Shown: piece by piece, positions 6,119 to 30,080 of the stretch
Position numbering within the stretch: the stretch's first letter is position 1
How the letters are laid out: each line of letters begins with the position of its first letter
Origin: Candidatus Eiseniibacteriota bacterium
GTDB taxonomy: Bacteria; Eisenbacteria; RBG-16-71-46
Assembly (NCBI GenBank): GCA_044222065.1
Contig: JBGAOA010000054.1
Coordinates: 1-30,080 of the forward strand
Reading direction: 5' to 3'
DNA length: 30,080 nt
The notes under the pieces: generated by a model
What the model was told of the DNA's origin: nothing
The model's database searches: none
What the model saw: the letters and a program-made list of their open reading frames with translations, nothing else
Position numbers and translations under genes: made by a program

Positions 6119-7628
6119 TCAGCGCCCCGCCGCGAACGCGGCGAAGTCCACCACGGGCTGCCCGGTGAGGCGCGCGACGTTCCCGGGCACGAGGGCGAGA
6201 TCGGCGTCGGTCACGAGCGTGAGCCCGGCGAGCGGGTCTACGCCCACGCGCCGGCGGAACGACTCGCGCACGGGCGCCCACGTGAGGAGCTTCGGGTTCT
6301 CGATCACGAGCCGGGGGCGTTCGCCCTCGAGGCGCTGGTAGGCGACGAGACGCGTGACGTGGTCGTCGGCCCAGAACACGATGCCGCGCTCGAACGGAAT
6401 CGAGCGCCACACTTCGCGGATTCGAGCCTCCACCGCGGCCGTGTTCGCCGCGCGGCCGCGCGCGCCGGCGAGCGAGCCCGGCACGGCGAACGCGAGCGCC
6501 GCTGCGATGCCCGCGCACGCGAGCGACGCGACGTTCGCGCGGCCGAATCGAGCGATCGCCGCGGGGAGCGTCGCGAGGCCCGCGACGAGCGGCGCGAGCG
6601 CGTAGGCCTCGACGTCGGGCACGCCGTAGACCGCGACGAACAGGAACTGCAACGCGGCCGCGGCCGCGAGCCCGACGGCGAGCGTGCGGCACGGCCCCGC
6701 GGGGGCGGCGAAAGGGAAGCCGAGCGCGAGCAGCGTCGCGCCCGCGAGCGTCACGGCGCCGTGGACGCCGAGCGTCGCGAAGGACTCGGTGAGCGAGCGG
6801 CCGAGGTACGCGCCGGCGTAGATCGCCCCCGTGACGTGCGACCACACGCTCGCGAGCGACGGTTCGAGCAGCGGCCACTGGTAGGCCGCGGGGTGGAACG
6901 CCCGCCAGGCAATCCACCCGTAGGCGAGGAGCGGGAGGAGCGCCGCGGCCGCCGTCGTCCGAAGGAACCGTCCCGCGGCGCCGGGTCGGCCCCGCGCGGC
7001 GAGCGCGAGCGCCGCGAGCACGGGCAGCGCGAGCAGGAGCGAGGTGAGGTGGTGCGCGAGGCCGACGCCCGCGACAGTCCCACGCGCAGGTCTGCGGCGC
7101 GCGCGTCACCGTAGCGCGAGGCGCTGGCCGCGCTGAGCGAGACGAGCAGGAAGCCCGCGACCACGCGGCGTGCCACGCGTACACTTCGGCGACGGTCGCG
7201 ACCTCTAGCGCGAGCGGGTGGAAGAGCAGCGCGAGCACCGCGAGCGGCGGCGCCGCGACGCCCGCGAGCCCGCTCGCGCCGCAGGCACTCGCGAGCCGCG
7301 TCGCGAGGCGCGCGAACAGCGCGACCGCGACGCCGAAGCCCGCCGCGCTCCACAGGTTCGCGGCGTGTGGCCAGGCGAAGCCCGCGGCGTGGAGCACGCG
7401 CACGAACGCCGAGCCGAGCAGCGTGTAGAGCGGATAGCCGCTCGGGTGCGGCACGCCGCCGAGCGCGAGCGCGAGCGTGAACTCGCCGGCGTCGTACGTG
7501 CCGTAGACGCGCGGCGTGAACGCGGCGGCGAGGACGAACGCGGCGACGCCCGCGAGGGGCGCGAACGCCGCGTGGATCGCGGCGCCGGGCGCCGCCGCGT
7601 CCGCGCGCTCGACCGCCTCGCCGCTCAC
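6119..7628 (-). pseudogene. DUF2723/TMEM260-like membrane glycosyltransferase (GT-C), interrupted by frameshifts at about 7075-7162 (pseudogene or sequencing error)
   Basis: The N-terminal frame has DAGEFTLALALGGVPHPSGYPLYTLLG and AEVYAWH. A second frame reads VAGFLLVSL, and a third resumes VAGVGLAHHLTSLLLALP and runs to the stop at 6119. Confidence 0.75.
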
Positions 7629-7641
7629 CCGGGACACGTCG

Positions 7642-10311
7642 TCAGCGCGCGCCGGCCGCGCGTTCGATCTTGAACACCTTGCCGCTCGTGCCCTCGAGCG
7701 CGATGCGCGCCTTGCCCGTCCACGTGGCCGTGGCACCCGTGAGGGCGTCCGTCGCCTTCACCGTGCCGCCGAACGGCGCGAGGTCGATCACGGACTCGCC
7801 CGGCATCGCCCCCGCGTTCATCGCGACGACGAACGTCTCCTGCGCGTCGCTGCGCTGGTACGCGTACACCATGCCGGTCGCATCGAGCGTGCGGAAATCG
7901 CCGGTGCGGAGCGAAGGATGCGCGTTCCGGAGCGCGCCGAGCCTGCGGTACCACTCGAGCGTCTCGACGCGCTTCGCGTCCTGCTCGTAGGTCCAGGGAA
8001 AAGGCCGGCGATTGTCGGGGTCCTCGCCGCCTTCGAGCGCGACCTCGTCGCCGTAGTAGATCGCGGGCGCGCCGACGTAGGTCATCTGGAACAGCGCCGC
8101 GAGCCGCAGGCGCTTCAGGTCCCCGCGCGCGCGCGTCACGTAGCGCGGCTTGTCGTGGCTGCTCACGAGGTTCATCTGCGTCTCGACCGCCTGCGTCGGG
8201 TAGGCGTTGCGCCCGGCGGCGAGCGTCGCGTCGAAGTCGCGCGCGGTCCCCTCGCCCTTGCACAGGAAGCGCTCGACGGGGAAGTAGCAGTACGCGTAGT
8301 TCATCACCGCGTCGTACACGCCCGGCCGCACGTAGTCGGTCGCGCTGCCCCACAGCTCGCCCATGATGTAGGCGTCGGGCTTCGCGGACTTGACGCGCTG
8401 GTTGAAGAGCTTCCAGAACCAGTACGGCACCTCGTTCGGCACGTCGAGGCGCAGGCCGTCCACGTCGGCGTCCTTGAGCCAGTACGTCGTCGCGTCGAGC
8501 AGGTAGTTCACGAGCGCGATGTTCGGCACGGCGTCCTTCACGTCGCGCACCGGGATCTCGGCCTTGTCGTCGCGCGACAGGTCGTAGTTCAGGTCGGGCA
8601 GGTCGCCGAAGCCCCACCAGCACGCGTAGTAGTCGCCCGGCTTCCACGGACTCCCGACGTTCGGCCAGCCCGCGGGCAGCGGCCAGCGCTTGAAGTCGAA
8701 CCAGTCGTAGTACGGGCTCTGCTTGCCCTTCTCGACCGCGTCCTTGAACGCCCAGTGCGAGTTCCCGCAATGGTTGTAGACGATGTCGAGGATGACGCGG
8801 ATGCCCTTCGCGTGCGCCTCCTTCACGAACGCGATGAACTCCTCGTTCGTGCCGAAGTGCGGGTCGATCTTGCGGAAGTCCGCGGCGTCGTACTTGTGCG
8901 TGCTCTTGGCCTCGAAGATCGGGTTGAAGTAGATCGCCGAGACGCCGAGCGATTTCAGGTAATCGAGCTTCTCGCGCACGCCGGCAATGTCGCCGCCGTA
9001 GAACGCCATCCAGTCGCGGCCGCCGGGCGTCCACGCGCACTGCGACAGCGCCGCGGCGTCGTTCCAGTCCTCGACGACGTGGTAGTACTCGGTGACCTCG
9101 GGATTGATGCGCGTGCCGGGCGCCGGGGCCGTGTGCTTGCCCTCGTAGTACCACTCGTGGAAATCCTGGTCGTTCGCGGGATTCCCGTTGCGGAACCGGT
9201 CCGGGAAGATCTGGTAGATGATCGCGTTCTTCACCCACTCCGGCGTTTCGAAGGCGGGGAAGCGCTCGGGCGAGTAGGTGAACTTGCCCGCCGCGGCCTC
9301 GGTGAAGCCCGCCGGACCGAGCCACAGCGTCTTCGCGCCGTCGCGGTAGCGGAACGCGTACGGCGTCTCGCCCGCGGGCAGCGTCACGAGCGCGCGGTAG
9401 TACACGAACGCGAGGTCCTCGTTCGCGGCGCGCATCGGCGTCACCCGCTCGGCGCCGTTCGTCCACGTGACGAGGTCCACGCCCTGCACGTCGTTCTGGT
9501 GCGCGCGCGCGGTGAACTCGACGCGCCCGCCGCCCATCGCATTCACCTCGTTCGCGCCCTGCGTGTGATCGAGGCCGTCCGGGAACACCTTGCCGTCCCC
9601 GACCTTCACGGCGATCTGCGGGTAGCGCGCGTCCACGTTGCGCAGCGAGTTCTTGCCGCCGTAGCCGTCGTCCACCTCGCCGTCCTGCCCCTGGCGGTCC
9701 TGCGTCCAGCCCGTGCCGTTCACGACGAACTTGTAGGGGTAGGAGCCGGGAGCGAGCAGCAGCGTCACGGTCCAGTTGCCGTCGCCGTCGGAATCCGACA
9801 TCGGCGTCTTCGTGGTGGACCAGTCGTTGAACGCCCCCGCGAGCGCGAGCGACTGCGCCTTCGTGTCCGGCCGGTACTTGAACGTCACCTGCCGGAGCCC
9901 GAGCGGTTCGCTCGACGCCGGCTTCTTCACGACGTTCGAGCCGGCCCCGGCCACGAGCGGCTTGTCCTTGATCTCGAGCACGGCGTTCTTGCCGCCGAAG
10001 CCGTCGTCCTCGGACGCGGCCGCGGACTCGTCCGTGAACCACTGGTCGCCGTTCACGACGAACTTGTACGTGACCTTGCCCTGCGGCAGGTCGAGCACGA
10101 GTTCCCACGTGCCGTCCTTGTCCGCGTCGGCGAGCGGGTTCGCCGCCTTGTCCCAGCCGTTGAAGCTCCCGGCGACGGCGACGCTCGAGACGCCTCCGAT
10201 CACGGGGACGTAGCGGAACGTGACCTTCGTCGCGTGGGCGGGGGCGGCGCCGAGCGCCGCCGCGAGCGCGAGCGCCGCGCCGAGATGCGCGAGTCGCGAA
10301 ATGGAGTTCAT
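7642..10311 (-). CDS. Exported GH13 alpha-amylase/neopullulanase-cyclomaltodextrinase-like enzyme with two N-terminal CBM48/AMPK-type modules, about 889 aa
   Basis: Signal peptide (ALAAALGAAPAHA). GH13 regions IYQIFPDRF, GGDIAGV, HKYD, LDIVYNH, DGLRLDVPNEV (nucleophile Asp), IMGELW (acid/base Glu), SSHDKPR and GAPAIYYGDE. The GAGGA RBS favours ATG 10311. Confidence 0.93.
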   Translation of the reverse strand: MNSISRLAHLGAALALAAALGAAPAHATKVTFRYVPVIGGVSSVAVAGSFNGWDKAANPLADADKDGTWELVLDLPQGKVTYKFVVNGDQWFTDESAAASEDDGFGGKNAVLEIKDKPLVAGAGSNVVKKPASSEPLGLRQVTFKYRPDTKAQSLALAGAFNDWSTTKTPMSDSDGDGNWTVTLLLAPGSYPYKFVVNGTGWTQDRQGQDGEVDDGYGGKNSLRNVDARYPQIAVKVGDGKVFPDGLDHTQGANEVNAMGGGRVEFTARAHQNDVQGVDLVTWTNGAERVTPMRAANEDLAFVYYRALVTLPAGETPYAFRYRDGAKTLWLGPAGFTEAAAGKFTYSPERFPAFETPEWVKNAIIYQIFPDRFRNGNPANDQDFHEWYYEGKHTAPAPGTRINPEVTEYYHVVEDWNDAAALSQCAWTPGGRDWMAFYGGDIAGVREKLDYLKSLGVSAIYFNPIFEAKSTHKYDAADFRKIDPHFGTNEEFIAFVKEAHAKGIRVILDIVYNHCGNSHWAFKDAVEKGKQSPYYDWFDFKRWPLPAGWPNVGSPWKPGDYYACWWGFGDLPDLNYDLSRDDKAEIPVRDVKDAVPNIALVNYLLDATTYWLKDADVDGLRLDVPNEVPYWFWKLFNQRVKSAKPDAYIMGELWGSATDYVRPGVYDAVMNYAYCYFPVERFLCKGEGTARDFDATLAAGRNAYPTQAVETQMNLVSSHDKPRYVTRARGDLKRLRLAALFQMTYVGAPAIYYGDEVALEGGEDPDNRRPFPWTYEQDAKRVETLEWYRRLGALRNAHPSLRTGDFRTLDATGMVYAYQRSDAQETFVVAMNAGAMPGESVIDLAPFGGTVKATDALTGATATWTGKARIALEGTSGKVFKIERAAGAR

Positions 10312-10325
10312 GGGCACCGGTCCTC

Positions 10326-10346
10326 GCGCGGCTCAGGGAGCCGCGC
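10326..10346. other. Perfect 9-bp hairpin next to the RBS of the GH13 gene
   Basis: GCGCGGCTC-AGG-GAGCCGCGC. Confidence 0.4.
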
Positions 10347-10388
10347 ACGTCGGGTGAGCGGACGGCGCGGGACGCGCCGCCCGGAACG

Positions 10389-11474
10389 TCAGGGAACGAC
10401 GAGAATCGAGTTCGTGCCGCCGAAGCCGTCGTCCTTCGTGGATGGATTCGCGGTATCGCTCGTCCAGCGACGGCCGTCCACGAGGAACTTGTAGGCGAAC
10501 GTTCCGGCGCCGAGCTTCTTCGTGATCGTCCACGTGCCGTCGGCCTGGCGCGTCATCGGATCGGCGGTCGTGGACCAGGCGTTGAAGTCGCCCGCGAGCA
10601 CGACGCTCGTCGCCGCACCGGCGAACGTGAAGCGCACGCCGTCGGCTCCGATCGCGGGCGGCGCGGCCTTGCCCGTGACGGCGACGGGTGCGGCGGTCGG
10701 GGCCGGCGTCGCGGCCGCCGCGCTCGACGCGCCGCCCGCGACCGTGACGACCGAGTTCTTGCCGCCGTAGCCGTCGTCCTTGTCGGACGGATTCGCGGAG
10801 TCGGTCTTCCAGTTCGTGCCGTCCACGACGAACTTGTAGGCGTACGTGCCGGGCGCGAGCGGCTTCACGATCGTCCACGTGCCGTCCGCCTGCTTCGTCA
10901 TCGGGTCGGCCGACGCGGACCAGGTGTTGAACGCGCCGGCGAGCGCGACGCTGCTCGCCGCGCCGGCGTAAGCGAAGCGCACGCCGTCCGCGCCCGCCTG
11001 CGGTCCGCCGGCCTTCGCGGGCGCGGACGCGGCCGGTGCGGCGGCGGCTGGAGCGGCCGCGGAGCCGATCACCACGATCGAGTTCTTGCCGCCGTAGCCG
11101 TCGTCCGTGTCCGTCGGGTTCGCGGAGTCGGTCTTCCAGTTCGTGCCGTCGATCACGAACTTGTAGGCGTAGCGGCCGGCCGCGAGCTTCTTCGTGAGCG
11201 TCCACGTGCCGTCCGACGTCGAGCCGAGCGGATCCGTGGTCGCGTTCCAGCTGTTGAACTCGCCGGCGACGTTCACGCGCGAGGCGGTGCCGCGGTAGAC
11301 GAACGTCACCTCGTCGCCCGAGACGTGGGTCGCGTTCTTCGAATCGGCGGCCGGGGCCGCGGCGGCCGAAGCCGCGGGTTCGCCCGGAGGCGCGCCGTTC
11401 CGCCAGCCGCCGGCGCAGCCCGCGAGCGCGAGCAGGGTGGAGGCGATCGAGACGAGACGCGTGGCGAGCTTCAT
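10389..11474 (-). CDS. Non-catalytic lipoprotein with three tandem CBM48/AMPK-type glycogen-binding modules, 361 aa
   Basis: The ATG overlaps the upstream stop (ATGA). Lipobox LAGC. Three repeats of VxxAGxFNxW...DP...DGTW...GxYAYKFVVDG..W..D..NP...DDG[YF]GG.NS separated by Ala/Pro linkers. Confidence 0.88.
   Translation of the reverse strand: MKLATRLVSIASTLLALAGCAGGWRNGAPPGEPAASAAAAPAADSKNATHVSGDEVTFVYRGTASRVNVAGEFNSWNATTDPLGSTSDGTWTLTKKLAAGRYAYKFVIDGTNWKTDSANPTDTDDGYGGKNSIVVIGSAAAPAAAAPAASAPAKAGGPQAGADGVRFAYAGAASSVALAGAFNTWSASADPMTKQADGTWTIVKPLAPGTYAYKFVVDGTNWKTDSANPSDKDDGYGGKNSVVTVAGGASSAAAATPAPTAAPVAVTGKAAPPAIGADGVRFTFAGAATSVVLAGDFNAWSTTADPMTRQADGTWTITKKLGAGTFAYKFLVDGRRWTSDTANPSTKDDGFGGTNSILVVP
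10752..11150. repeat. Intragenic duplication of CBM modules (327-bp offset)
   Basis: An identical 28-mer at 10752-10779 and 11079-11106, and an identical 32-mer at 10792-10823 and 11119-11150. Confidence 0.85.
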
Positions 11475-13111
11475 GGACGGGATCTCCTCCAGACGGGCCG
11501 CGACAGGCCGGGCGCGGGCACCGATTCGACCGAGAACGTGAGGCGGCGCTCGTCGAGCCGGAACCGGTAGTTGCCGGACGACGGGATCTGGACCTTGAGC
11601 GCCGTGCCGATGCCGGAGACGAGCCGCGTGTCGGCGTTCGTGACCGGCGCGACGATCGTGACGCTCTCGTCGCCGCCGTAGTCGGTGGGATTGTCGAACG
11701 AACCGTCGGTGACGAACTTCAGGTTGTAGGTGCCCGCGGCGATCGGGTGCGACGGCGCGTACTCCCACACCGCGAGCGCCACGAGCGACATCTGCGTCGA
11801 GTCGGCGAGCGTGAAGCCGTTGAAGTCGCCCGCGACGTGCAGGTTGCTCGAGAGTTCGTTGATGTCGGCGGCGAGCGTCACGTCCTGCGTCACGACGCTC
11901 GTGCCGACCGTCACGTCCATCGAGTCGCGCGCGAACTGCCACGCGTCCCAGCGCAGCCGGTAGGTGCCGGCGGGAAGCGACGAGAACGAGTAGGTGTTCG
12001 TGAACTTGTCCGTGACCGTCTCGCCGACCTTCGTCGCGCCCTGGAAGAGCTGCAGCGTCGTCGGCGGCCACGGCGCGCTCGCGAGGTCGGGGTGGATCGT
12101 GGGGTCCCACGCGAGCGTGCCCTGCACGCCGCCGGTCTGCGGTCCGCTCGAGACGAACGACGCCGCGATCGTGTGATTCGCCGCGACCGAGTTGAACGTG
12201 TAGCTCGTCACGGCGCCGACCGAGACCCCGTCCACGAGCACGTCGTCCACGGCGAATCCGAAATCCGGCGTGATCGTGAAGGGCTTGTTCTCGCCGCTGA
12301 ACACCGTGACGGCGCCGCTCGGGGCGATCGTGCCGCCGGCGCCCGCGCTCGCCGTGATCGCGAACGTGACCATGCCGATCGTGCCGAGGTTCGCGCCCGT
12401 GCCGCCGACCGTGACGTTCGTGAACGTGCGCGAGCCCGCGGCCGAGCGCACGAGCACGTTGTACGTGCCCGGCACGAGGTTCGCGATCGCGAACGATCCG
12501 TCCACCGTGCTCGTGTACGCGGCGTCCGACGTGCTGCCGATCGGGACGAATCCGTACGGCGCGGGCGAGGCGGTCTCGTCGAGCGTGCAGAGCAGCGGTC
12601 CGGCTTCGGCCGCGCCCACGTTCGCGACGATGTTCCCGTCCGGGCCGGCCGCTCCGAGCACGGCCTCGCCGACGAGGCCGTCCACCTGTCCGCCGGGCTT
12701 GCCGTAGTCGGGCGGATTGTCGAACGCGCCGTTCGTGACGAACTTCCATTCGAACGTGCCCGAGGGCACGGAAGTCGTGTCCACCCAGAAGCCGGGCGCG
12801 AGCTGCGTGAGGCGCGGCGACTGCGCGATGTTGAATCCGGTCGGCGTGCCCACGACCTGGATCGTCGTGAACGACGAGTGGAAGCTCGCGTTCTTGACGC
12901 GCGCGATCATCACGAGCGAGCGCGGGAACGTGCCGGGCGTTCCGAAGTCGAGCTTGCCCGAGATCACGCCGATCGCCGGCTGCGGCAGCTCGCCCGTGGG
13001 CGCGAGCAGCGTGCGGTTCGAGTTCGGGTCGCACGCGCCCGCGGCGAGCGCGAGCGCCGCGAGCGCGGGCGGGAGGGCGGAGCGGCGGAAGCGGCGAAGG
13101 AGGGCGTTCAT
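11471..13111 (-). CDS. Multidomain lipoprotein with two related CBM-like beta-sandwich modules (SusE/F-like architecture), Ig-like spacers and an InlB-B-like repeat, 546 aa
   Basis: Lipobox AGAC. Internal repeat GTFEWKFVTNGAFDNPPDYG / GTYNLKFVTDGSFDNPTDYG; LHVAGDFNGF; ITASAGAGGTIAPSGAVTV...VLVDGVSVGAVTSYTF repeat. No catalytic motif recognised. Confidence 0.75.
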   Translation of the reverse strand: MNALLRRFRRSALPPALAALALAAGACDPNSNRTLLAPTGELPQPAIGVISGKLDFGTPGTFPRSLVMIARVKNASFHSSFTTIQVVGTPTGFNIAQSPRLTQLAPGFWVDTTSVPSGTFEWKFVTNGAFDNPPDYGKPGGQVDGLVGEAVLGAAGPDGNIVANVGAAEAGPLLCTLDETASPAPYGFVPIGSTSDAAYTSTVDGSFAIANLVPGTYNVLVRSAAGSRTFTNVTVGGTGANLGTIGMVTFAITASAGAGGTIAPSGAVTVFSGENKPFTITPDFGFAVDDVLVDGVSVGAVTSYTFNSVAANHTIAASFVSSGPQTGGVQGTLAWDPTIHPDLASAPWPPTTLQLFQGATKVGETVTDKFTNTYSFSSLPAGTYRLRWDAWQFARDSMDVTVGTSVVTQDVTLAADINELSSNLHVAGDFNGFTLADSTQMSLVALAVWEYAPSHPIAAGTYNLKFVTDGSFDNPTDYGGDESVTIVAPVTNADTRLVSGIGTALKVQIPSSGNYRFRLDERRLTFSVESVPAPGLSRPVWRRSRP

Positions 13112-13513
13112 CTATCTCACCACGATGAGCGAGTTGAAACCGCCGAAGCCGTCGTCCACTCGCTGCGGGTTGTTGGGGTCTTCCTTCCACGTGACCTGGT
13201 CCACGACGTACTTGTACTGCCAGCGCCCGGCCGGAATCGGCACCGTCAGCTCCCAGATGCCGTCGCCGTCGAGATCGCGCATCTGCCCGATCAGGAAGCC
13301 GCCCGTCTGCGCCTGGCCGCGCAGCCAGTCGTTCTCGGGCCACGAGCCCGCGAGCTGCACGATCTTCGCCGAGCGCGATTCGAACCGGAACGTCACGCCC
13401 GCGGCCGACTGGGTCGGCGGCGGCAGGCGCTTCTTGATGAAGCCCATGCTGCTGCAGCCGCCCGCGGCGAGCACCGCGAGCGCGAGGAGCGGAAGCAGGA
13501 TCGAGCGTCGCAT
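13112..13513 (-). CDS. Small lipoprotein with a single CBM48/AMPK-type glycogen-binding module, 133 aa
   Basis: GGAGG RBS, MRRSILL...LAAGGC lipobox, VQLAGSW, GDGIWELTV, WQYKYVVD and VDDGFGGFNS. Confidence 0.85.
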   Translation of the reverse strand: MRRSILLPLLALAVLAAGGCSSMGFIKKRLPPPTQSAAGVTFRFESRSAKIVQLAGSWPENDWLRGQAQTGGFLIGQMRDLDGDGIWELTVPIPAGRWQYKYVVDQVTWKEDPNNPQRVDDGFGGFNSLIVVR

Positions 13514-13524
13514 TCGGGGCCTCC

Positions 13525-15678: not shown

Positions 15679-15708
15679 CGTCGGCTCCGGGGCGCGCGAA
15701 GCGGCCCG

Positions 15709-19650: not shown

Positions 19651-19762
19651 CTGCGCCGTCCGGGCCGCGCCGCAGCGTGCGATCGTCCGGATCTCGCATC
19701 CGCCTTACGAGCCGACGCGCCGTCCGGCGAGCGGTTCTCTGGCGACCGGCTGGAGACTCGTG

Positions 19763-22304: not shown

Positions 22305-22342
22305 CGGAGGCGCCGCCTCGCGCGGCGCCCCCGATTCCTTTT
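22305..22342 (+). terminator. Probable intrinsic terminator of the 19763 gene
   Basis: Stem GGCGCCGC (22309-22316) / GCGGCGCC (22322-22329), followed by ATTCCTTTT. Confidence 0.6.
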
Positions 22343-22357
22343 CGGGGTGCGCGAGGG

Positions 22358-22395
22358 AAACGGAAGGGGCGGGCGCTCGCGGCGCCCGCCCCTTC
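22358..22395 (-). terminator. Probable terminator of the convergent 23161-22415 gene
   Basis: Perfect 14-bp stem GAAGGGGCGGGCGC (22363-22376) / GCGCCCGCCCCTTC (22382-22395), followed on the minus strand by CGTTT. Confidence 0.65.
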
Positions 22396-22414
22396 GCGCA
22401 TCGAATCGCGCGGC

Positions 22415-23161
22415 CTAGCGGTACAGCGTCTTCAGCTCGCCCCAGCTTCGCGCCTTCGTCGGCGTCGGGTTCCCGACCGTCACGCGCGCACGGCCGGTGC
22501 ACTGGTCGAACTCGAACAGCACGTCGCTGTTCGCCATCGTCGTCGTGTACGCGAGGTTCGCTCCGCACGGCGCGGCGGCGCCCTCGCTGCCAATGTTGCA
22601 CACGTCCCACGTGCCGGTCGCGCGGAACTTCGCCTCGTAGCTGCCCGGCGCGGCCACGTTGACCGTCTTCGACCACACGCAGCCCGTCAGCGACGCGGCC
22701 ACGCCCGACGTCCAGCCGCCCGTCTCGGGCGCGCCGCCGATGACTTCGAACGTCGTGCCCGGAGGCGCGAAGTGATCGCTCCAGACGATGTTGCTCGCCG
22801 GCAGCCAGCCGTCCGAGTACGTGTTGCGATCGAGCGTGAACTTCACCGGGTCACCGGGGCCCGCGATGTGCACCCACAGGTTGCACCACGGGTAGTAGCT
22901 CTCGGACCAGTCCGCGAGCGCGATCTTGAACTCCTTGCGGCCGCCGGCCTGGTCGGCGACGACCGTGCCCGCGAACACGAGGTCGCCCGCGGCGCCGTCG
23001 CCGTGGAGACCGTCGTCGAACATCTCGTTCCCGCCGTCGTTGTTCCAGCAGCCGGGGCCGCAGTAGTAGTCGCCCTTGGCGAACCACGGTCCGGCGATGG
23101 CCGTGCCGACGAGCGCGGCCGTGGCGATGACGGTGAGGAGCGCAGTCGCTGTCTTCTTCAT
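22415..23161 (-). CDS. Secreted 248-aa Cys/Trp-rich protein with CBM-like modules and a C-terminal SWGxxKxxYR motif
   Basis: GGAGGA RBS; signal peptide MKKTATALL...AIA; MFDDGLHGDGAAGDLVF motif; paired segments KEFKIALADW / YEAKFRATGTW; ends PTPTKARSWGELKTLYR. Confidence 0.82.
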   Translation of the reverse strand: MKKTATALLTVIATAALVGTAIAGPWFAKGDYYCGPGCWNNDGGNEMFDDGLHGDGAAGDLVFAGTVVADQAGGRKEFKIALADWSESYYPWCNLWVHIAGPGDPVKFTLDRNTYSDGWLPASNIVWSDHFAPPGTTFEVIGGAPETGGWTSGVAASLTGCVWSKTVNVAAPGSYEAKFRATGTWDVCNIGSEGAAAPCGANLAYTTTMANSDVLFEFDQCTGRARVTVGNPTPTKARSWGELKTLYR

Positions 23162-23237
23162 GTTGGGGGTCCTCCTCCAGGTTCGTTGGGTGATTCCGCG
23201 GGTCCGCGGAGAGCGGGATGCGGTCCCGAGCGCGAAA

Positions 23238-23268
23238 AGTCTAGCAGCAGGCCCGGGGGACGTGGCAA
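23238..23268 (-). promoter_or_regulatory. Putative promoter of the 248-aa secreted protein gene
   Basis: Minus strand TTGCCA, then an extended -10 TGcTAGACT. The 19-nt spacer is atypically long. Confidence 0.4.
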
Positions 23269-23291
23269 CGCGGTATTCGCGGGAGCGGCGA

Positions 23292-24134
23292 TCAGGACTT
23301 CACGCCCCCGAGCGACAGCCCCTCGACGAGCCAGCGGTTGAGCGCCACGAACAGCACCATGACCGGCACGCAGACGAGCAGGGATCCGGCCGCGTAGTTC
23401 GCCCACTCGGTCTGAAACGTGCCCGCGAGGCTCTCGAGGCCGAGGGGCAGCGTGTACAGCTCGGCGCGGCTCAGCACGATGCGGGCGACGAGGAACTCGG
23501 ACCACGCCGCCATGAACGAGAACAGCGCGGTGATCGCGAGCGCCGGCGAGGCGAGCGGCAGCGTGACCCGCACGAACGCGGTCCACGGGCCGCAGCCGTC
23601 GATGAGCGCCGCCTGTTCGAGCTCGACCGGGATCGTGTCGTAGTAGCCGCGCAGGGTCCACACGCAGAACGGCAGCGCCGTCGTCGTGTACGCGAGCACG
23701 AGCCCGAAGTAGGAGTTGAGGAGGCCGAGTTCCTTCATGAGCACGTAGAGCGGCAGCATGAGCATCGTGGGCGGGAACATCTGCGTGAGCAGGAACGAGT
23801 AGAGCCCGGCGCGCGAGCCCGGGAAGCGGAAACGCGAGAACGCGTAGCCGGCGGTCGAGGCGAGCGTGACGCCGAACACCGTGGTCGCGAGCGACACGAC
23901 GAACGAGTTCAGGAGCCAGCGCAGGAACGGCTTCTCGAACAGCATCACGCGGTACGCGGTGAACGTGGCGTGCTCGGGGACGATCGCGAGCGAGGTCGAG
24001 TAGAGCTGGTCGGAGGGCCGCAGCGAGACCGTGAAGATCTGCAGGATCGGGTAGACGGTCGCGAGCGCGAAGAACGCAAGGAACACGTGCGTGAGCACGC
24101 GCCCGGGCGTCCAGCGGTCGGCGCGGCCGCTCAC
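23292..24134 (-). CDS. malG: Carbohydrate ABC transporter permease (MalG-like), 280 aa
   Basis: The GTG overlaps the upstream stop. AGYAFSRFRFPG, TQMFP, EAA loop IPVELEQAALIDGC, FMAAWSEF. Confidence 0.9.
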   Translation of the reverse strand: MSGRADRWTPGRVLTHVFLAFFALATVYPILQIFTVSLRPSDQLYSTSLAIVPEHATFTAYRVMLFEKPFLRWLLNSFVVSLATTVFGVTLASTAGYAFSRFRFPGSRAGLYSFLLTQMFPPTMLMLPLYVLMKELGLLNSYFGLVLAYTTTALPFCVWTLRGYYDTIPVELEQAALIDGCGPWTAFVRVTLPLASPALAITALFSFMAAWSEFLVARIVLSRAELYTLPLGLESLAGTFQTEWANYAAGSLLVCVPVMVLFVALNRWLVEGLSLGGVKS

Positions 24135-25015
24135 GCCCGCCGCTCCGCGACGGCGGTGCGCCGGAGCACGACGATCACGAAGCCGAGCAGCAGCGCGAAC
24201 ACGACCATCGAGAACGCCGCGGCGTACGAGTAGCGCGTGTACGTGAACGCGACCTTGTAGATGTACGTGACGAGGATGTGCGTCTGGTCGGCGGGCTCGC
24301 CGCCGTGCGACACGAGCCACACGACGAGCATGTTGTTGAACGTCCAGATCGTGCCGAGCAGCACGGCGGGCGTCAGCGTCGGGAGCAGCTGCGGCCACGT
24401 GATGTGGACGAAGCGGTCCCACGCGCTCGCGCCGTCGAGCTCGGCCGCCTCGTAGAGGTCGCGCGGGATCGTCGTGAGCCCGCCGAGCGCGACGACCATC
24501 ATGAACGGGAAGCCGAGCCACACGTTCGTGAGCACCGGCGCGACGAACGCCCAGAACGGATCGGTGAGCCACGGCACGGCGGGCAGGTGGAGCACCTTGC
24601 GCAGGATCAGGTTCACCGCGCCGTACTCGTAGTTGAACATGCCGCGCCACGTGAGCGCCGAGATGTACTGCGGCATCGCCCACGGCAGGATGAGCAGCGT
24701 GCGGAACAGCGTCTTGCCCTTCACGTTTCCGCGCAGCATCAGCGCGAGCATCACGCCGATCGCGACGTGGAAGAACACGTTCACCGCCGTCCACACGAGC
24801 GACTTCGCGAGCGTCGAGTAGAACATCGGCTCGGAGAGGATGAGCCGGAACTGCTCGAGGCCGACGAACGCGTGGTTCCGGAACCGGTACAGGCTCATGT
24901 TCCGGAACGCGAGGTACACGTTGTAGAGGAGCGGGTACGCGACGACGACGGCCATCGCGACGAACGAGGGGAAGACGAGCGCCGGACCGAACCAGCGCGG
25001 GGCGCGCAGGACCAT
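24131..25015 (-). CDS. malF: Carbohydrate ABC transporter permease (MalF-like), 294 aa
   Basis: FVGLEQF, RTLLILPWAMP, NVWLGFPFMM, EAA loop IPRDLYEAAELDGAS, THILVTYIYK. Confidence 0.9.
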   Translation of the reverse strand: MVLRAPRWFGPALVFPSFVAMAVVVAYPLLYNVYLAFRNMSLYRFRNHAFVGLEQFRLILSEPMFYSTLAKSLVWTAVNVFFHVAIGVMLALMLRGNVKGKTLFRTLLILPWAMPQYISALTWRGMFNYEYGAVNLILRKVLHLPAVPWLTDPFWAFVAPVLTNVWLGFPFMMVVALGGLTTIPRDLYEAAELDGASAWDRFVHITWPQLLPTLTPAVLLGTIWTFNNMLVVWLVSHGGEPADQTHILVTYIYKVAFTYTRYSYAAAFSMVVFALLLGFVIVVLRRTAVAERRA

Positions 25016-25021
25016 CGCCGG

Positions 25022-26263
25022 CTACTGGCGCATGCCGGCGATCTGCTGCAGCGCGTCCGCCTGCATCTGCGCCGCGGCCTTCGCGGGGCTCGCCGACCCG
25101 GCCATCACCTGCTGCATGCCCGGCCGCATGACGTCCCACAGCACGCGCATCTCGGGCACGACGGGCATGCGGCGCCCGAGCTCGAACGCCCGCTGCGACG
25201 CCTGGAGCGTCGGATCGCCCTGGATCGCGGGATCGGCGTACGCGTCGCGGTGGCTCGGCAGCACGCCCAGTTCGACCGCGCGGCGCTTCTGCGCCTCGGC
25301 CGACGTCAGGTAGGTGACGAGTTCGATCACGGCCGGGAGCTTCGCTTCCTTCACGTTCGCGTTGATCGAGTAGCCCTTGCTCGCGACCATCGGCGTCGCG
25401 CGCCGGCCGTTCGGCAGCGCCATGAGCGGCGCGACGCCGACGTCGATGCCGGCCTTCCGGTAGCCCGACCACGACCACGGGCCGTTCACGATCATCGCCG
25501 CCTGCCCCTCCTTGAAGAGCGTCTCCATCACCTGGTAGTCGCTCTCGCGCGGCATCACGCCCGCGCGGTTCTTGAGGTCGGCGAGCAGGGCGAGCGCTTC
25601 GCGCATCGGTTCGCCGTCGAGCGTCGGCTGCCGGTTCGCGTCCATCACCCAGCCGCCGTAGCCCGCGAGGAACGGCGCGAGCCAGTAGGGCTCGTTCGCG
25701 TTGAAGGCGAAGCCGTACACGGCGGGCGCGTCGCCCTTCGCCGGGCGCGTGGTCGCCTTCGCGATCTTCAGGAACTCGTCCCAGGTCTCGGGCGGCGCCG
25801 GCACGAGCTTGCGGTTGTAGACGAGCGTGAGGTGGTTGCCCACCTGGTCGGGCGCGGCCCACAGGTGTCCGTCCAGCGTGTCGAGCGACTGCGGAACGAA
25901 GCGGTCGAAGAACCCGGCCGGCATCGTGGTCTCGAGCGGACGGATCACGGCGAGCAGCGACAGCGGGCCGATCTGGTCCGAGGGCCCGAACACGATCTCG
26001 GGGCCGCCGCCCGCGGTCGCGGCGGTCTGGAACTGCGTGCGCAGGTTCTCGGTGTCGTAGGCGACGTACTCGACCTGCGCGCCCGGGTGCGCGGCGCGGT
26101 AGGCGGCGAGATTGTCGTCGAGCCGCACGCGCTCCTCGGGATCCATCTGGATCCAGATCGTGATCTTGCCGTCGTCCGCGGCCTGCTTGGCGCCGCCGCA
26201 CCCGGCGGCGGCGAGGGAGAGGGCGAGCGCGAGGGCGAGCGGGAGGCGTCCGCCGTTCGACAT
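25022..26263 (-). CDS. malE: Maltose/maltodextrin-type ABC substrate-binding lipoprotein, 413 aa
   Basis: GGAGG RBS before ATG 26263; lipobox AAGC; MalE-like motifs GGGPEIVFGPSDQIG, LVYNRKLVPAPPETWDE, LFKEGQAAMIVNGPWSW and MPVVPEMRVLWD. Confidence 0.88.
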   Translation of the reverse strand: MSNGGRLPLALALALSLAAAGCGGAKQAADDGKITIWIQMDPEERVRLDDNLAAYRAAHPGAQVEYVAYDTENLRTQFQTAATAGGGPEIVFGPSDQIGPLSLLAVIRPLETTMPAGFFDRFVPQSLDTLDGHLWAAPDQVGNHLTLVYNRKLVPAPPETWDEFLKIAKATTRPAKGDAPAVYGFAFNANEPYWLAPFLAGYGGWVMDANRQPTLDGEPMREALALLADLKNRAGVMPRESDYQVMETLFKEGQAAMIVNGPWSWSGYRKAGIDVGVAPLMALPNGRRATPMVASKGYSINANVKEAKLPAVIELVTYLTSAEAQKRRAVELGVLPSHRDAYADPAIQGDPTLQASQRAFELGRRMPVVPEMRVLWDVMRPGMQQVMAGSASPAKAAAQMQADALQQIAGMRQ

Positions 26264-26315
26264 GGTGCGACCTCCGGAGAGCGGATGCGGAGCGCGCACC
26301 CGACGTCGTCTTCAA

Positions 26316-26355
26316 CGAAGAGCGGCGCGGCGCGAGTGCGCCGCGCTGCTCTTCG
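26316..26355. terminator. 18-bp inverted repeat (one mismatch) between the GH57 gene and malE; terminator or mRNA-stabilising stem-loop
   Basis: CGAAGAGCGGCGCGGCGC-GAGT-GCGCCGCGCTGCTCTTCG, about 10 nt past the GH57 stop on the minus strand. Confidence 0.6.
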
Positions 26356-26364
26356 AGCGCAGTA

Positions 26365-29300
26365 TCAGGGAACGAGCACGAAGCGGCGCGTGAGCCGTTC
26401 GGAGCCGTGCGAAAGGTGCACGAAGTAGAGACCCGGCGCAAGCGTACGGCCGCGATCGTCGCGGCCGTCGAACGTGATCGCGTGCGGGCCGGCGCCGAGC
26501 ACGCCCGCGGCGAGTTCGCGCACGCGTCGTCCGGCGAGATCCGTCACGTCGAGCCGCACGAACGCGCCGTCGCGCGGCACGACGAACGCGATCGCGGCCG
26601 CGCCGCGCGAAGGATTCGGGATCGGAGAACGCAGCGCGAGACGGCCAACGGCCTCGGATTCGACCGCGACCGGCGGGCCCTGGAACGACGCGAGCGTCTG
26701 CGGCCGCCGGTTCGCGTAGCACGAGGCGTCGCGCACGTCGCTCGCGACGACCGTGTACGCGCGGAACAGCAGTCCGTCCACGACGAGCCGCACCGTGACC
26801 TGGTCGGGCTGGAGCGCGGCGCCGAGGACGGCGACGGTGTTCGTGGGATTGGCGGTCTCGTAGAGCGCGTAGTGCGAGGCGACGTTCGCGCTCGCCGCCG
26901 TCACGGGCTCGTCGAACGTCACGGTGACGACGCTGTCCCACGCCGGCGCCGCGGCCGACACGAGCAACGGCGGCGTGTGGTCCTGCGGATCGGGAACGCC
27001 GTCGCCGTTCGCGTCCAGCGTCACGAGCGCGCGGTTGTCGATCGCGGGCGGCGTCGCGCCGACGTTGTTCGGCGCCTGGTCGCCGCCGAGTTCGCCCGAC
27101 GGCTCGGGGTCCCAGCACAGCGAGGCGACGAGTCCGAGCGTCGCGTTCGCCGGGACGTGGTTCGGGCCGAGGCCGTAGAGCGTGTTCCACGGAATCGCGA
27201 GTTCGCTGCCGCCGTTGAGCCCGTAGGCGTGCGACGGATCGAACGCCTTGAGGATCGCCGCGCTCGAATCCGCGGTCGTCGTCGCGCTCAGGATGCGGAA
27301 GAACGACTGGCTGTCGAAGCCGCCCTGGTGCTGGTAGGCGCCGAACTCCCAGTCGGGCTTGAAGCCCGGCGCCGAGAACGTCGCGCCGCGCTCCCACGCG
27401 TTGATCGCCGTCAGGTTCGTCTGGCCGCTCACGCCGCCCGGATCGGTGTCGAGGTACAGCAGCCACGAGTTCGACGTCACGACGCCGCGCAGGCCGAGGT
27501 AGAGGTAGCTCGAGTCCCACGACGCGTACACGGCCTGGATCTCGTTCGTGATGTTGTTCGGCGCGGCGTTCCAGCCCGAGTCGAACGAGTCCGCGACCGC
27601 GACCGTGCACGACGGCCACTCGTCCGCGTCGAAGCGGCCGTCGAGCGTGATGCGCGTCGGCGGTCCGTAGGAGACCGGCACGATGTCGGACGGCGGGAAC
27701 GCGTTCGAGTTCAGGTTGAACGCCGCGTCCTTCACCGAGTCGTGCAGCAGTCCGAGGCGCATCGTGAAGTGGTTCGGGAACGCCTCGATCGCGGTCGCCT
27801 GCGCGGGCGTGAGCTGCAGCGTCAGCACCGTCGCGCTGCCGGACGTGAGCAGCGTCGCGCCGCCGAGCAGCACCGTGCCGAATCCGGAGTCGTCCGGCCA
27901 CACCTGGAAACCGCTCACGCCCATGGGCCCGAGCGTCACGGCCTCGTCGAACGTCACGACGAGCTGGTCCGAGGCGGGGTAGTACGTGCCGCTCACGGGG
28001 CGGGGCTTCAGGACGTCCACCGCGAGCGGCAGCACGGCCTCGAGTTCCGCGATGTGTCCGCCGCCGTCGGGAGGCGAGGTCTTGCCGGCGTAGATCAGGA
28101 AGTTGAACTTCTGCGTGCCGCGAATCTCGTCGACCTTCATCAGCGTGCTCGAGGTCTCGGCGTTGTGCGTCGCTCCGCCGGTGCCGAGCACGTACGCGGC
28201 GGTCGCGCCGGTGTTCGGATTGCGCTGGCCCATGTACGTCGTCGGACCGCCGCCCCACACGCGGTCCATGCGCGCGTTGTAGAGCAGGTCCACGAGGTCC
28301 GGCGTCCAGCCGCTCCGCACGTACTCCGTCTGGTTGCCGACCGTGTAGTCCACGCTGAGGTACGGCTGTCCGCTCGACAGCGCGACGTGCTTCGTCAGGC
28401 CGCCGTGCGTGAGCGTGACGCTCGCGCTCGTGCCCGACCCCGGGACGAGCGAGATCGCGTAGAGGTCGTGCTGCGTGTTCGGCCCGACGTCCGAGAGGCC
28501 CGCGACGTGGTTCACGTCGTTGTAGTCGCCCTCGGTGCCCGCCCAGTAGGCGTTGTCCACGCCGATGACGGAGAAGTCGTAGTCCGAGCCCTTCGCGAAC
28601 AGGTGCGTGAGCCGTCCGCCGTTCGGCTCGAACACCGCGAACAGCCGGTCGTTCCACAGCACCGCTTCGCTGTTCCCGTCGCCGTCCACGTCCTGCATCG
28701 TCGCCGCCGTCGTGGGGGCGTAGCCGCCGGCGCGCCAGTTCGCCGCGTTCGCGTACACGATCGCGTTCTTGAGGTGGGCCGAGTACTGGCGCTGCCAGCC
28801 GGACAGCGGTCCGCCGAGGTAGTCGTGCCATCCGGTCTCGTGCAGGTTCGTCATCAGCACGTACCAGCCCGACTCGCGCAGGTTGTTGTTCGGCGCCGAT
28901 TGCAGCGCGAGGTGAGCGTCGTTCCACAACTGCCCGTGGTTGCGGCAATTGCCTCCGCCGCCGCAGCCGCCGCTGCCGTTGCCCCCGGTCGAGTAGGGCA
29001 CGAAGCCCGCCCAGTCCGTGTACCAGGCGTTGTTGCTCCCGCCGTAGCCCTGCACGTCGCCGATGCCGCCGTAGGTTCCGTAGGTCGGCGTGAACGTGTC
29101 GCCGTTGAAGTTCGGGTTCGCGATCGCGGCGTCGAGCTTCCACGTGTGCAGCCACGCGCTCTCGGTCGCGCACTTGTCGATCATCCACAGGTACGTCGGC
29201 TCGGCGAACGGGAACGTGTTCTCCCAGCCCGCGACGCCGGCCGCCATCTCCCAGTCGTCGGCGTACACCGTGATGCGGAACTGCCCGAGCCCGGAGTTCG

Positions 29301-30080
29301 CCTCGGCCTCGAGGATCGCGAGCGCTCCCGCGCCGTCGCCGGTGTGCAGCTTGCCCGTGAAATCGCCGTCGCGCGGGATCATGCGCAGCCCGTTCCCGAG
29401 CAGCGTGTGGATCCGGTGCTTGTTGTGGCCCTGCAGGTGCGGCCAGTCGTCGAGGATCACGGCGCTGACGCCGTTCGCCTGCCAGTGCGCGCCCGACCAG
29501 TCGATCACGCCCGCGTTCGGATACGTGGCGGGGTCGAGGAAGACCCGCTCCGGCACCCACGCGACGTTCGGGTCGTAACCGTAGCGCGCGTTCACCATGT
29601 CGTGGTCGCGCGAGATCGCCCAGTCGTTCATCGCGCCCTGCAGGAAGGGCATGATCGGCTGGCCGTACGCCGAGCACAGCATGCCGGCCCAGCCCGCGGT
29701 CACGCCCGTTCGCAGCCAGCCGTTGAAGTCGAGCGGATCGCCGTTCTGCCGGTTCCACTCGGCGACCGTCTGGAGCAGTGCGCCGACGTGGAAGTTGCCG
29801 GGGACGTTCTTCTGTTCGTGAACGCGCAGGATCTCGTCGTAACCGCTCGAGGCCTCGGCGAGGTAGCGGCCCTTGAAGTAGTCCGTGTAGGCGAGGCCCT
29901 GGTTCGCGTGGTGCGCGAACGCGACGTTCGTCTGGCCGCTCGGCGCGAACGCCTCGTCGCCGCGCGCGACGAGCCGGTCGAGTTCGCGGCCGTTCGCGAC
30001 CGTGAGCACCGCGACGTGCGCGGGGGCGGCGTCCGCCGCGGCGAGCGCGGCGGCCATCCAGCCGTGCTCGAGGTGGAACG
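26365..30080 (-). CDS. Large GH57-family alpha-glucan-active enzyme (4-alpha-glucanotransferase/amylopullulanase-like) with Ig-like, DOMON/CBM9-like and FlgD/T9SS-like C-terminal domains (5' partial, >1230 aa)
   Basis: GH57-like conserved regions HHANQ, SAYGQPIMPFL, AWVPERVF (nucleophile Glu) and YADDWE (acid/base Asp); DVDGDGNSEAVLWNDRLFAVFEPNGG beta-sandwich start; CTD PIPNPSRG...DVTDLAGRRVREL...FDGRDDRGRTLAPGLYFV. The frame is open to the right edge. Confidence 0.78.
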   Translation of the reverse strand, partial: FHLEHGWMAAALAAADAAPAHVAVLTVANGRELDRLVARGDEAFAPSGQTNVAFAHHANQGLAYTDYFKGRYLAEASSGYDEILRVHEQKNVPGNFHVGALLQTVAEWNRQNGDPLDFNGWLRTGVTAGWAGMLCSAYGQPIMPFLQGAMNDWAISRDHDMVNARYGYDPNVAWVPERVFLDPATYPNAGVIDWSGAHWQANGVSAVILDDWPHLQGHNKHRIHTLLGNGLRMIPRDGDFTGKLHTGDGAGALAILEAEANSGLGQFRITVYADDWEMAAGVAGWENTFPFAEPTYLWMIDKCATESAWLHTWKLDAAIANPNFNGDTFTPTYGTYGGIGDVQGYGGSNNAWYTDWAGFVPYSTGGNGSGGCGGGGNCRNHGQLWNDAHLALQSAPNNNLRESGWYVLMTNLHETGWHDYLGGPLSGWQRQYSAHLKNAIVYANAANWRAGGYAPTTAATMQDVDGDGNSEAVLWNDRLFAVFEPNGGRLTHLFAKGSDYDFSVIGVDNAYWAGTEGDYNDVNHVAGLSDVGPNTQHDLYAISLVPGSGTSASVTLTHGGLTKHVALSSGQPYLSVDYTVGNQTEYVRSGWTPDLVDLLYNARMDRVWGGGPTTYMGQRNPNTGATAAYVLGTGGATHNAETSSTLMKVDEIRGTQKFNFLIYAGKTSPPDGGGHIAELEAVLPLAVDVLKPRPVSGTYYPASDQLVVTFDEAVTLGPMGVSGFQVWPDDSGFGTVLLGGATLLTSGSATVLTLQLTPAQATAIEAFPNHFTMRLGLLHDSVKDAAFNLNSNAFPPSDIVPVSYGPPTRITLDGRFDADEWPSCTVAVADSFDSGWNAAPNNITNEIQAVYASWDSSYLYLGLRGVVTSNSWLLYLDTDPGGVSGQTNLTAINAWERGATFSAPGFKPDWEFGAYQHQGGFDSQSFFRILSATTTADSSAAILKAFDPSHAYGLNGGSELAIPWNTLYGLGPNHVPANATLGLVASLCWDPEPSGELGGDQAPNNVGATPPAIDNRALVTLDANGDGVPDPQDHTPPLLVSAAAPAWDSVVTVTFDEPVTAASANVASHYALYETANPTNTVAVLGAALQPDQVTVRLVVDGLLFRAYTVVASDVRDASCYANRRPQTLASFQGPPVAVESEAVGRLALRSPIPNPSRGAAAIAFVVPRDGAFVRLDVTDLAGRRVRELAAGVLGAGPHAITFDGRDDRGRTLAPGLYFVHLSHGSERLTRRFVLVP

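Follow-up and report, generated by a model that had tools for sequence, protein, structure and literature searches.

The window analysed here is the entire contig C99 (JBGAOA010000054.1; 30,080 bases) of a Candidatus Eisenbacteria genome, and it carries a conserved alpha-glucan (starch, glycogen or maltodextrin) locus of Candidatus Eisenbacteria. Genes for outer-membrane beta-barrels, carbohydrate-binding lipoproteins, secreted proteins with type IX secretion system (T9SS) tails, a GH13 enzyme and a MalEFGK-type importer lie together, and we describe the whole as a polysaccharide utilisation locus whose outer-membrane module is new. The functional reading that we put forward, and to which we give an even chance, is that this locus captures and takes up alpha-glucans by means of an outer-membrane module made of parts not described before.

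The G+C content of the window is about 70%. Because most long open reading frames (ORFs) are spurious at such a composition, genes were called from the frame-specific G+C content of third codon positions (GC3), starts were taken as start codons at GC3 frame transitions, and the translations were inspected by eye for signal peptides and lipoboxes. The core of the locus is a tight minus-strand run from 19492 to 6119, with junctions of -4, -4, +30, +11, 0, -4, +71 and +4 nt; its first four genes overlap or have at most 30 nt between them. The run begins with cargo436 (18182-19492). Its product carries a signal peptide, then a domain of about 270 aa that matches no family and may bind sugar, and last a FlgD_ig-like tail with the C-terminus ...VVAR. 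The cargo436 stop is overlapped, in an ATGA, by the start of a gene for a 316-aa outer-membrane barrel of the PorV/PorQ family (17235-18185). Two genes for large outer-membrane beta-barrels follow: barrel509 (15709-17238), recognised from its AlphaFold model and ending ...KGNF, and barrel717 (13525-15678), recognised by Pfam and AlphaFold, which has an N-terminal CBM48 and ends ...GIVTF. Next come three lipoprotein genes, CBM48x1 (13112-13513; small, with a profile match to one CBM48 and a lipid-anchor cysteine), lipo546 (11471-13111; tandem beta-sandwich modules with weak X25 and CarboxypepD_reg matches) and CBM48x3 (10389-11474; three CBM48 modules by Pfam and the lipobox LALAGC). They are followed by the gene for the GH13 enzyme (7642-10317), in which Pfam finds two CBM48 modules, Alpha-amylase_N and the catalytic domain behind a signal peptide. 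Upstream of the run and divergent from it lies cargo842 (19760-22288, plus strand), a T9SS cargo, and beyond it malG, malF, malE and the large tailed protein big1230, all on the minus strand.

The order of these genes is conserved among relatives. We examined two sets of loci that share genomes: set 1 comprises 20 loci of 20 kb from different families and set 2 comprises 75 loci from species-representative genomes, of which only those with long enough flanks enter each count (L147 was dropped, no barrel509 piece being kept). In set 1 the PorV-like gene adjoins barrel509 in 20/20 loci and a barrel717 match comes next in 20/20; in 17 loci this match spans more than 80% of the length, and in L067, L072 and L073 it is partial. 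The cargo436 gene precedes in 19 of the 20, and every locus has at least one of MalE, MalF or MalG (16 loci), GH13 (10) or big1230 (5). In set 2 the PorV-like gene is directly upstream of barrel509 in 64/64 loci, barrel717 is directly downstream in 63/63, a CBM48 lipoprotein comes after barrel717 in 60/60, and cargo436 is found two genes upstream of barrel509 in 49/61. Flanks of 9 kb or more on each side are available for 33 set 2 loci, and 32 of these contain MalEFG (27), GH13 (18) or big1230 (3), the exception being L108, which has none of them. Within the phylum the order is preserved in at least 10 GTDB families, and in a divergent clade (L073, ~11450-16720) a 1756-aa tailed protein upstream of the PorV-like gene takes the place of cargo436. 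A preliminary description of this DNA, made from the sequence alone, had looked to synteny of the barrel cassette with alpha-glucan enzymes in other genomes, and these counts (64/64, 63/63 and 60/60 for the cassette, 32/33 for the alpha-glucan genes) bear it out.

The same description had proposed that the locus works without SusCD or LamB, and on this point the searches support it. None of the proteins in the window has a TonB-dependent receptor domain (PF07715/PF00593), and the 16 matches to PF00593 in the genome (4.2 Mb, 131 contigs, 94% complete) include none on contig C99. Searches of this 94%-complete genome gave 0 matches at E<=0.1 for SusD (PF07980) and likewise 0 for LamB (PF02264), with positive controls in B. 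thetaiotaomicron and E. coli, respectively. The window barrels are therefore neither TonB-dependent receptors nor LamB homologues by domain content, as had been supposed. Nor was a TonB-dependent receptor found close to the locus in relatives: in 5/5 of those with long contigs, the nearest one either lies at a distance of 78 kb to 1.5 Mb or is encoded on a different contig.

The two large barrels are the most distinctive part of the module. AlphaFold models were built with alignments of 20 (barrel509) and 17 (barrel717) orthologues. The barrel509 model, with a predicted local distance difference test (pLDDT) score of 78 and a predicted template-modelling (pTM) score of 0.71, is all-beta, with 27 strand elements over residues 28-509. 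The barrel717 model (pLDDT 79, pTM 0.70) has the CBM48 at ~34-117, a low-confidence linker and a barrel from 139 to 717, with very long strands at 338-421 and helices at 671-705 that precede the last strand. Neither has a plug domain. The last residue of each is aromatic, which is usual for outer-membrane proteins. Neither protein could be assigned to a barrel family of Pfam or NCBIfam; at E<=10 Pfam gave no barrel family in the 20 barrel509 and 17 barrel717 orthologues, and no match in the barrel of 27 remote barrel509 relatives. By these searches, barrel509 and barrel717 are undescribed families. Hidden Markov model searches at E<=10 of 16,528 ORFs from the same genome returned no paralogue of either barrel domain, so both barrels appear to be specific to this locus rather than part of the general T9SS machinery. 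Relatives of barrel509 form 196 clusters (50%, E<=0.001) among 1.84 billion representatives, and in one remote relative (P0271, 698 aa) the barrel is joined at its N-terminal side to a CsgG-like domain (PF03783, E 1.9e-7). Between barrel509 and barrel717, hhalign found a local alignment of 59 columns close to the C-terminus (E 0.0093, probability 4.4%), which we did not accept as paralogy.

A fold search independent of Foldseek placed the barrel509 model closest to the PapC pore (Z 16.5, root-mean-square deviation (rmsd) 6.1, 361 residues aligned), tied with MtrB (Z 15.5), FimD (15.1), SusC BT1762 (15.0) and maltoporin 1mpr (14.3); the SusC-type chains 5t3r and 8aa4 were also among its matches, and the maltoporin match (Z 14.3) is no better than those to unrelated barrels. 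For barrel717 the search returned AlgE (Z 16.1, rmsd 6.2, 308 aligned), tied with FyuA (15.4), SusC BT1762 (15.3) and ScrY (14.8). The N-terminal domain of barrel717 matches CBM48/AMPK1_CBM at E 1.7e-14, over the cut-off, and model residues 29-122 superpose on the CBM48 of amylases and of branching enzyme with Z 11.8-13.2 and rmsd 1.7-2.6. The fusion is a property of the family: in a 5.8-billion-protein collection we found 76 homologue clusters of barrel717, 72 of which have a CBM48-type Pfam domain, and the best source name among these homologues is 'glycogen-binding domain-containing protein'.

The third barrel is of a different kind. The 316-aa protein matches the PorV/PorQ model NF033709 at E 1.1e-13 over nearly its full length (residues 30-308 to model positions 8-323 of 326), as do 21/21 of its orthologues (best 7.4e-22), and a profile of the PorV-like proteins matches F. 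johnsoniae PorV (6h3i_F) at both ends, E 5.2e-9. Since its own score on NF033709 is 51.5 bits, under the curated cut-off of 90, we file it as a divergent member of the PorV/PorQ family and not as PorV itself. Proteins of this family have a 14-strand FadL-like barrel fold. The PorV-like barrel is most likely a holder of the neighbouring tailed protein and not a sugar pore. The earlier proposal that three novel barrels pass oligosaccharides thus has to be narrowed: all three have barrel folds or families and two are undescribed, the third belongs to the PorV/PorQ barrels of T9SS, and passage of sugar through the other two is what we would predict rather than what the searches establish.

Consistent with a T9SS connection, the genome contains SprA (512 bits summed) and PorU (469.5 bits), and about 10 loci of the PorV/PorQ family. 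Tails of the T9SS type occur in 135 places on 61/131 contigs. GldK had a sub-threshold match only, and the GldM model TIGR03517 had no match in the genome, the control genomes being equally silent. Within the window, cargo842 has a Big_5 domain, two choice-of-anchor X domains and a type A tail that scores 25.8 bits on TIGR04183 (cut-off 23) and 35.3 bits on FlgD_ig; with a tail over the cut-off in a genome that has SprA and PorU, it qualifies as a type IX cargo, in agreement with the sorting-like tails noticed originally. Matches that cover more than half of its length were obtained in 8/20 relatives' loci, six of them with 52-55% identity and two with 27%. Sequence-profile searches of the Protein Data Bank with cargo842 and with lipo546 gave nothing useful. 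The FlgD_ig tail of cargo436 is sub-threshold (18.5 bits), as it is in 14/17 orthologues, and aligns to the tail of big1230 at E 4e-5; the domain of cargo436 is itself paralogous to big1230 residues ~838-1023 (27% identity, E 4e-12). The cargo436 profile (A7) found only Ig-like tails in the Protein Data Bank. In the protein atlas the best placements of its domain, at up to 0.89, were with the Glucodextran_C and CBM9_1 clusters; being under 0.9 these were treated as leads only and set aside. Of four sorting-like tails first proposed for the locus, three are of the FlgD_ig/T9SS type, counting the sub-threshold one of cargo436, and the fourth, that of the small protein p248, is of another kind.

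The three lipoproteins had all been taken for carbohydrate binders. Two of them have CBM48 modules and the third, lipo546, is weakly X25-like. CBM48x3 matches AMPK1_CBM at E 3.1e-41 in 3 stretches and, together with GH13 and barrel717, passes the cut-offs for CBM48 membership (PF02922/PF16561). CBM48x1 falls just under the cut-off of Pfam CBM48 (25.2 versus 26.8 bits) and is matched by the CBM48 part of profile A2 at 6.7e-10. It is also the best-conserved protein of the cassette, with a mean column identity of 66% (alignment A8, 17 orthologues). In these 17 orthologues the segment that follows the lipid-anchor cysteine (residues 20-33) reads C-x-x-[LM]-x-F-[IV]-K-x-R-L-P-P-P and is nearly invariant, with C20, K27, R29, L30 and P33 invariant; it is not present in lipo546 or CBM48x3, and from its sequence it may be a docking or sorting peptide. 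The match of lipo546 to X25_BaPul_like (30.6 bits) is for the whole protein, no single stretch passing, and its orthologues vary from 544 to 742 aa.

The enzyme of the run matches Alpha-amylase at E 2.1e-66, and among NCBIfam models it comes closest to maltodextrin glucosidase (E 2.1e-106) and cyclomaltodextrinase (E 2.2e-85), without reaching the cut-off of either. It appears to be a neopullulanase-, cyclomaltodextrinase- or MalZ-like enzyme and, having a signal peptide and no T9SS tail, is probably periplasmic. The importer genes comprise those for a MalG-like permease (23292-24134; BPD_transp_1, MalG NF008231 E 1.1e-51), a short-form MalF-like permease (24131-25015; BPD_transp_1, MalF NF008232 E 5.9e-54) and a MalE-like solute-binding lipoprotein (25022-26299; lipobox, SBP_bac_8 E 8.6e-37, MalE NF007011 E 9.1e-46), all on the minus strand; the Mal models are the best NCBIfam matches of the three proteins, each of which scores under the cut-off of its model. 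A MalK-type ATPase of the ATP-binding cassette (ABC) class lies apart from malEFG on the plus strand (2657-3754; ABC_tran, OB_MalK and TOBE_2). All four have family matches, in keeping with the original assignment of MalE/F/G with a MalK at 2657, and on these matches MalEFGK is a CUT1-type sugar importer. Maltodextrin is its probable substrate because the neighbouring genes are alpha-glucan-related. Directly upstream of malK, at ~1380-2573 on the plus strand, we also noted a further gene with a link to alpha-glucans, whose product is a secreted esterase (PF00756, E 1.5e-33) that has a starch-binding CBM20 domain at its N-terminus.

The clustering of GH57 with GH13 enzymes claimed at the outset holds for GH13, which Pfam identifies, and has to be weakened to a distant likeness, below the family cut-off, for the GH57 candidate big1230 (26365-30080, minus strand; 5' end cut by the contig end). 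This protein has a GH57-like domain at ~30-680, a cargo436-like domain at ~838-1023, an Ig-like Big_5 domain and a FlgD_ig/T9SS tail that passes the FlgD_ig cut-off with 34.6 bits. Its homologues, some of which go by the name T9SS type A sorting domain protein, are about 1390-1405 aa long and have a signal peptide; since they have ~170-200 more N-terminal residues as well as the signal peptide, the ATG at 30057 is not the big1230 start. The family comprises 411 proteins at E<=0.001, some source-named Krumholzibacteria or Latescibacteria, without a catalytic-domain annotation, and PF18962 matches 12/25 members. Three weak comparisons point towards GH57. The ten best named neighbours of residues 30-680 in protein-language features are all GH57 (top 0.96, 191/256 features), and the GH57 family PF03065 weakly matches 16/25 family members at E<=10 (best 3.6e-4). 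Alignment with hhalign to 14 true GH57 of the phylum (A5) gave E 0.085, or 0.024 when trimmed, at a probability of at most 2%; this weak match pairs SAYGQPIMPF with SAYYHPILPL, and VAWVPE(170) with the invariant G.WP.E(267). In global mode, hhalign found nothing between big1230 and the true GH57. Residues W167, P169, E170, R171, L202, D203, D204, E407, W410, H411 and D412 are invariant in 25 family members, in motifs that we take to resemble the conserved regions of GH57, a family whose catalytic fold is a (beta/alpha)7-barrel. The big1230 profiles (A3 and A4) matched only FlgD-type tails in the Protein Data Bank and no solved GH57. From this we call the domain GH57-like, a distant likeness, and do not file it as a member of the family. 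A true GH57 gene is present elsewhere in the same genome, and the tally is 37/41 genomes, counting the unpublished genome G073. In the divergent relative L073 (G060:C20) a true GH57 (PF03065, 203.8 bits) lies between malE and a CBM48 lipoprotein, at ~3975-5276.

In function the locus resembles both the Sus system and the LamB/Mal system, and it fails the defining membership tests of both. The Sus of Bacteroides thetaiotaomicron consists of SusCDEFG and the periplasmic SusA and SusB, with an inner-membrane carrier of the major facilitator superfamily (MFS). As in Sus, a single locus here would bring together glycan binders at the surface, lipoproteins built from starch-binding modules in tandem, a barrel of the outer membrane, an enzyme outside the cell and, in the periplasm, a GH13 of neopullulanase type. 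It differs from Sus in having neither a TonB-dependent SusC (no plug, no TonB_dep_Rec) nor SusD; the proposed surface binder is T9SS-tailed and encoded beside its own PorV-family barrel, whereas that of Sus is a lipoprotein lid, and the inner membrane would be crossed by the MalEFGK ABC importer instead of an MFS carrier. In E. coli maltodextrins take the route LamB-MalE-MalFGK, with the periplasmic MalS. The likeness here is in a proposed TonB-independent maltodextrin barrel, a MalEFGK-type importer and a probably periplasmic amylase; unlike LamB, with its 18 strands, the barrels have more than 20 strands, are paired, and one is fused to a CBM48, and T9SS cargo and CBM48 lipoproteins are added. 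To call this a third architecture, as the preliminary description did, was overstated, since it overlooked other outer-membrane routes for alpha-glucans, namely the SusD-less TonB-dependent MalA, and CymA.

Closer parallels for the arrangement exist within the same genome. Cassettes that join a TonB-dependent receptor, a tailed protein and a PorV paralogue are found on C84 (2500-9553) and C55 (30792-37573), and further ones on C80 (9026-17764) and C38 (26810-33884); their tailed proteins are ~940-1080 aa or more. On C12 a PorV paralogue adjoins a 420-aa tailed protein. The four receptor cassettes share with the window locus a transporter gene (a putative one in the window), a T9SS-tailed protein and its PorV-family barrel. 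In the window, two plug-less barrels stand in the place of the TonB-dependent receptor, the order is cargo, PorV-like gene, barrels, and the CBM48, GH13 and Mal genes allow a substrate to be named. The resemblance to PorV/PorQ carriers such as F. johnsoniae PorV (6h3i) lies in the full-length match, the presence of SprA and PorU, and a tailed gene immediately upstream. Here, in contrast to a general PorV, the protein is one of ~10 paralogues, scores below the cut-off and is tied to two other barrels in a locus for one kind of substrate; this points to a holder with a dedicated task and not a general shuttle. As a separate observation, PorU, PorV and a tailed protein stand in a row on C77.

From these elements we infer where the products are located, what they bind and that barrel509 and barrel717 carry maltodextrins, in the following scheme. 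The T9SS would export big1230, with its GH57-like domain, cargo842 and cargo436 to the cell exterior. Cargo436, which could be a stand-alone copy of the accessory domain of big1230, would be kept on the cell, its tail held by the PorV-like barrel of the overlapping next gene; such retention agrees with the other cassettes of the genome, which put a PorV paralogue beside a tailed protein and a TonB-dependent receptor. The single-copy, plug-less barrel509 and barrel717 would stand in for that receptor and pass alpha-glucan chains, which the CBM48 modules of barrel717, the lipoproteins and GH13 would bind. The tail-less and probably periplasmic GH13 would then cut the chain, and MalEFGK would import the products.

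A more specific version of uptake would have long chains enter independently of TonB through the two barrels of more than 20 strands, with the PorV-held T9SS binder acting in the manner of SusD and a periplasmic CBM48 ratchet operating without an energy coupler. The members of this ratchet would be barrel717, the small lipoprotein that always follows it, and GH13. We think this version rather unlikely. It draws on the barrel717 model, in which ~24 strands are long enough to cross the membrane and, counted from either end, are connected by a consistent alternation of short turns with long loops. This suggests that both termini, and so the fused CBM48, are periplasmic; unless it threads the lumen, the CBM48 would sit at the periplasmic mouth, where the model suggests a binding ratchet rather than a surface receptor.

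Several observations weigh against capture and uptake as we propose them. The periplasmic placement suggested for the barrel717 CBM48, just given, would not fit surface binding. An open barrel of more than 20 strands would need a gate, and none was identified in these two. Foldseek found for both barrels a generic likeness only, to ushers, TonB-receptor barrels and porins, with template-modelling (TM) scores of at most 0.49, and the best whole-barrel matches are exporters or conduits (ushers, MtrB and AlgE), tied with SusC, maltoporin and ScrY. The conserved ~270-residue domain of cargo436 has no family match, so that the proposed binder has no recognised binding domain. PF03065 had no match in the contig at E<=1, and its score on big1230 is 10.6 bits against a cut-off of 21.2 (E 0.35, residues 116-175). 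The locus is also restricted in distribution: relatives of barrel509 occur in 60/206 genomes of the phylum (41/121 of the high-quality ones; 31/83 genera), and the locus is thus in only 60/206 phylum genomes. As for expression, RNA libraries (3 runs of 2 studies) yielded short contigs of ~160-500 nt, at least 99% alike with 0-2 differences each, which cover GH13, CBM48x3, lipo546, CBM48x1, barrel717, barrel509 and the PorV-like gene, and also cargo842, the p248/malG junction, malF, malE and big1230. These contigs fit transcription of the locus, although the support is weak because DNA carry-over is possible, and with one depth figure per contig they cannot rank or link the genes.

Such points leave room for a different role of the barrels. 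Alpha-glucan may indeed be degraded, with the three barrels forming a secretion or attachment module, one that would export, dock or display the T9SS cargo and CBM48 lipoproteins of the locus at the surface as a cell-bound 'amylosome', while small maltodextrins enter through unrelated general porins. We regard this as possible, though doubtful. Membership of one of the three barrels in the PorV/PorQ family speaks for it, as does the constancy of the trio, whose members stay together (64/64 and 63/63) in loci with a different cargo too, and the best structural matches, ushers, MtrB and AlgE, pass or hold macromolecules. However, the genome bears the tail in 135 places and yet has no paralogue of either large barrel, so T9SS cargo in general can do without them; the CBM48 fusion is present in 72/76 barrel717 clusters; the equivalent position in the sister cassettes of the genome is held by a TonB-dependent importer; and the locus encodes no other candidate channel.

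We consider it very improbable that the module instead exports or anchors an alpha-glucan made by the cell itself, such as a capsule or a surface glycogen-like polymer, with AlgE- or PelB-like exporters for barrels and CBM48 proteins that hold the polymer. The top fold match of barrel717 (VIA) is indeed the alginate exporter AlgE, but it is tied with many unrelated barrels. The run does end in a TMEM260-like gene of glycosyltransferase type (6119-7637), but this gene is broken and is found in 0/20 relatives' loci, and no synthase is conserved in the locus. Export is further made unlikely by the conserved partners, which are an importer (MalEFG) and hydrolase-type enzymes. There is a negligible chance that the genes cluster by accident or that the cluster was produced by calling ORFs in DNA rich in GC: many long spurious ORFs do arise at 70% GC, but the genes follow the GC3 signal and have domain matches, and the order kept across families refutes it.

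To our knowledge the Eisenbacteria phylum has no cultured member and lives in activated sludge and soils. Near-identical DNA was found in bioreactor, activated-sludge, wastewater and biofilm metagenomes, where 17 runs contained half or more of the sampled words. Few outer-membrane routes for glycans are understood, as far as we know: specific porins (LamB, CymA) and TonB-dependent transporters with or without SusD. If the two barrels carry sugar, the locus offers a third kind of outer-membrane glycan hardware; if that sugar is maltodextrin, polymers can be taken up without TonB, and an uptake system can obtain its surface receptor through the T9SS. Should they carry no sugar, the CBM48-barrel fusion still names a ligand for an orphan outer-membrane family and is directly testable. 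In the parts of the published literature available to us, we came across neither a locus of this kind nor a barrel fused to CBM48, nor any account of T9SS in Eisenbacteria. The searched passages of one study, which gives GH13 and GH57 counts in a neighbouring phylum, do not mention the locus (PMC11323493).

Two further genes in the window deserve comment. The TMEM260-like membrane protein gene was taken as the ninth member of the run in the preliminary description. The close spacing holds throughout (-4 to +71 nt), but this last gene is split across three reading frames, with frame changes at ~7020-7160, and is either a pseudogene or the product of assembly errors; PF11028 matches its N-terminal part with 32.1 bits. 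As it is broken and gave no match in any of the 20 relatives' loci, we rejected it as a member of the locus. The other, p248 (22415-23161, minus strand), encodes a small secreted protein with a choice-of-anchor X domain (NF041940, 35.7 bits) and is found near the locus in 7/20 relatives. Its C-terminus, ...SWGELKTLYR, is a short tail unlike the FlgD_ig/T9SS type. Such tails recur in the genome: 39 of the 16,528 stop-to-stop ORFs (at least 120 aa) match, nearly all ending in [ST]WGx[LIVM]Kx[LI]YR, and this is a second genome-wide C-terminal tail beside the T9SS type.

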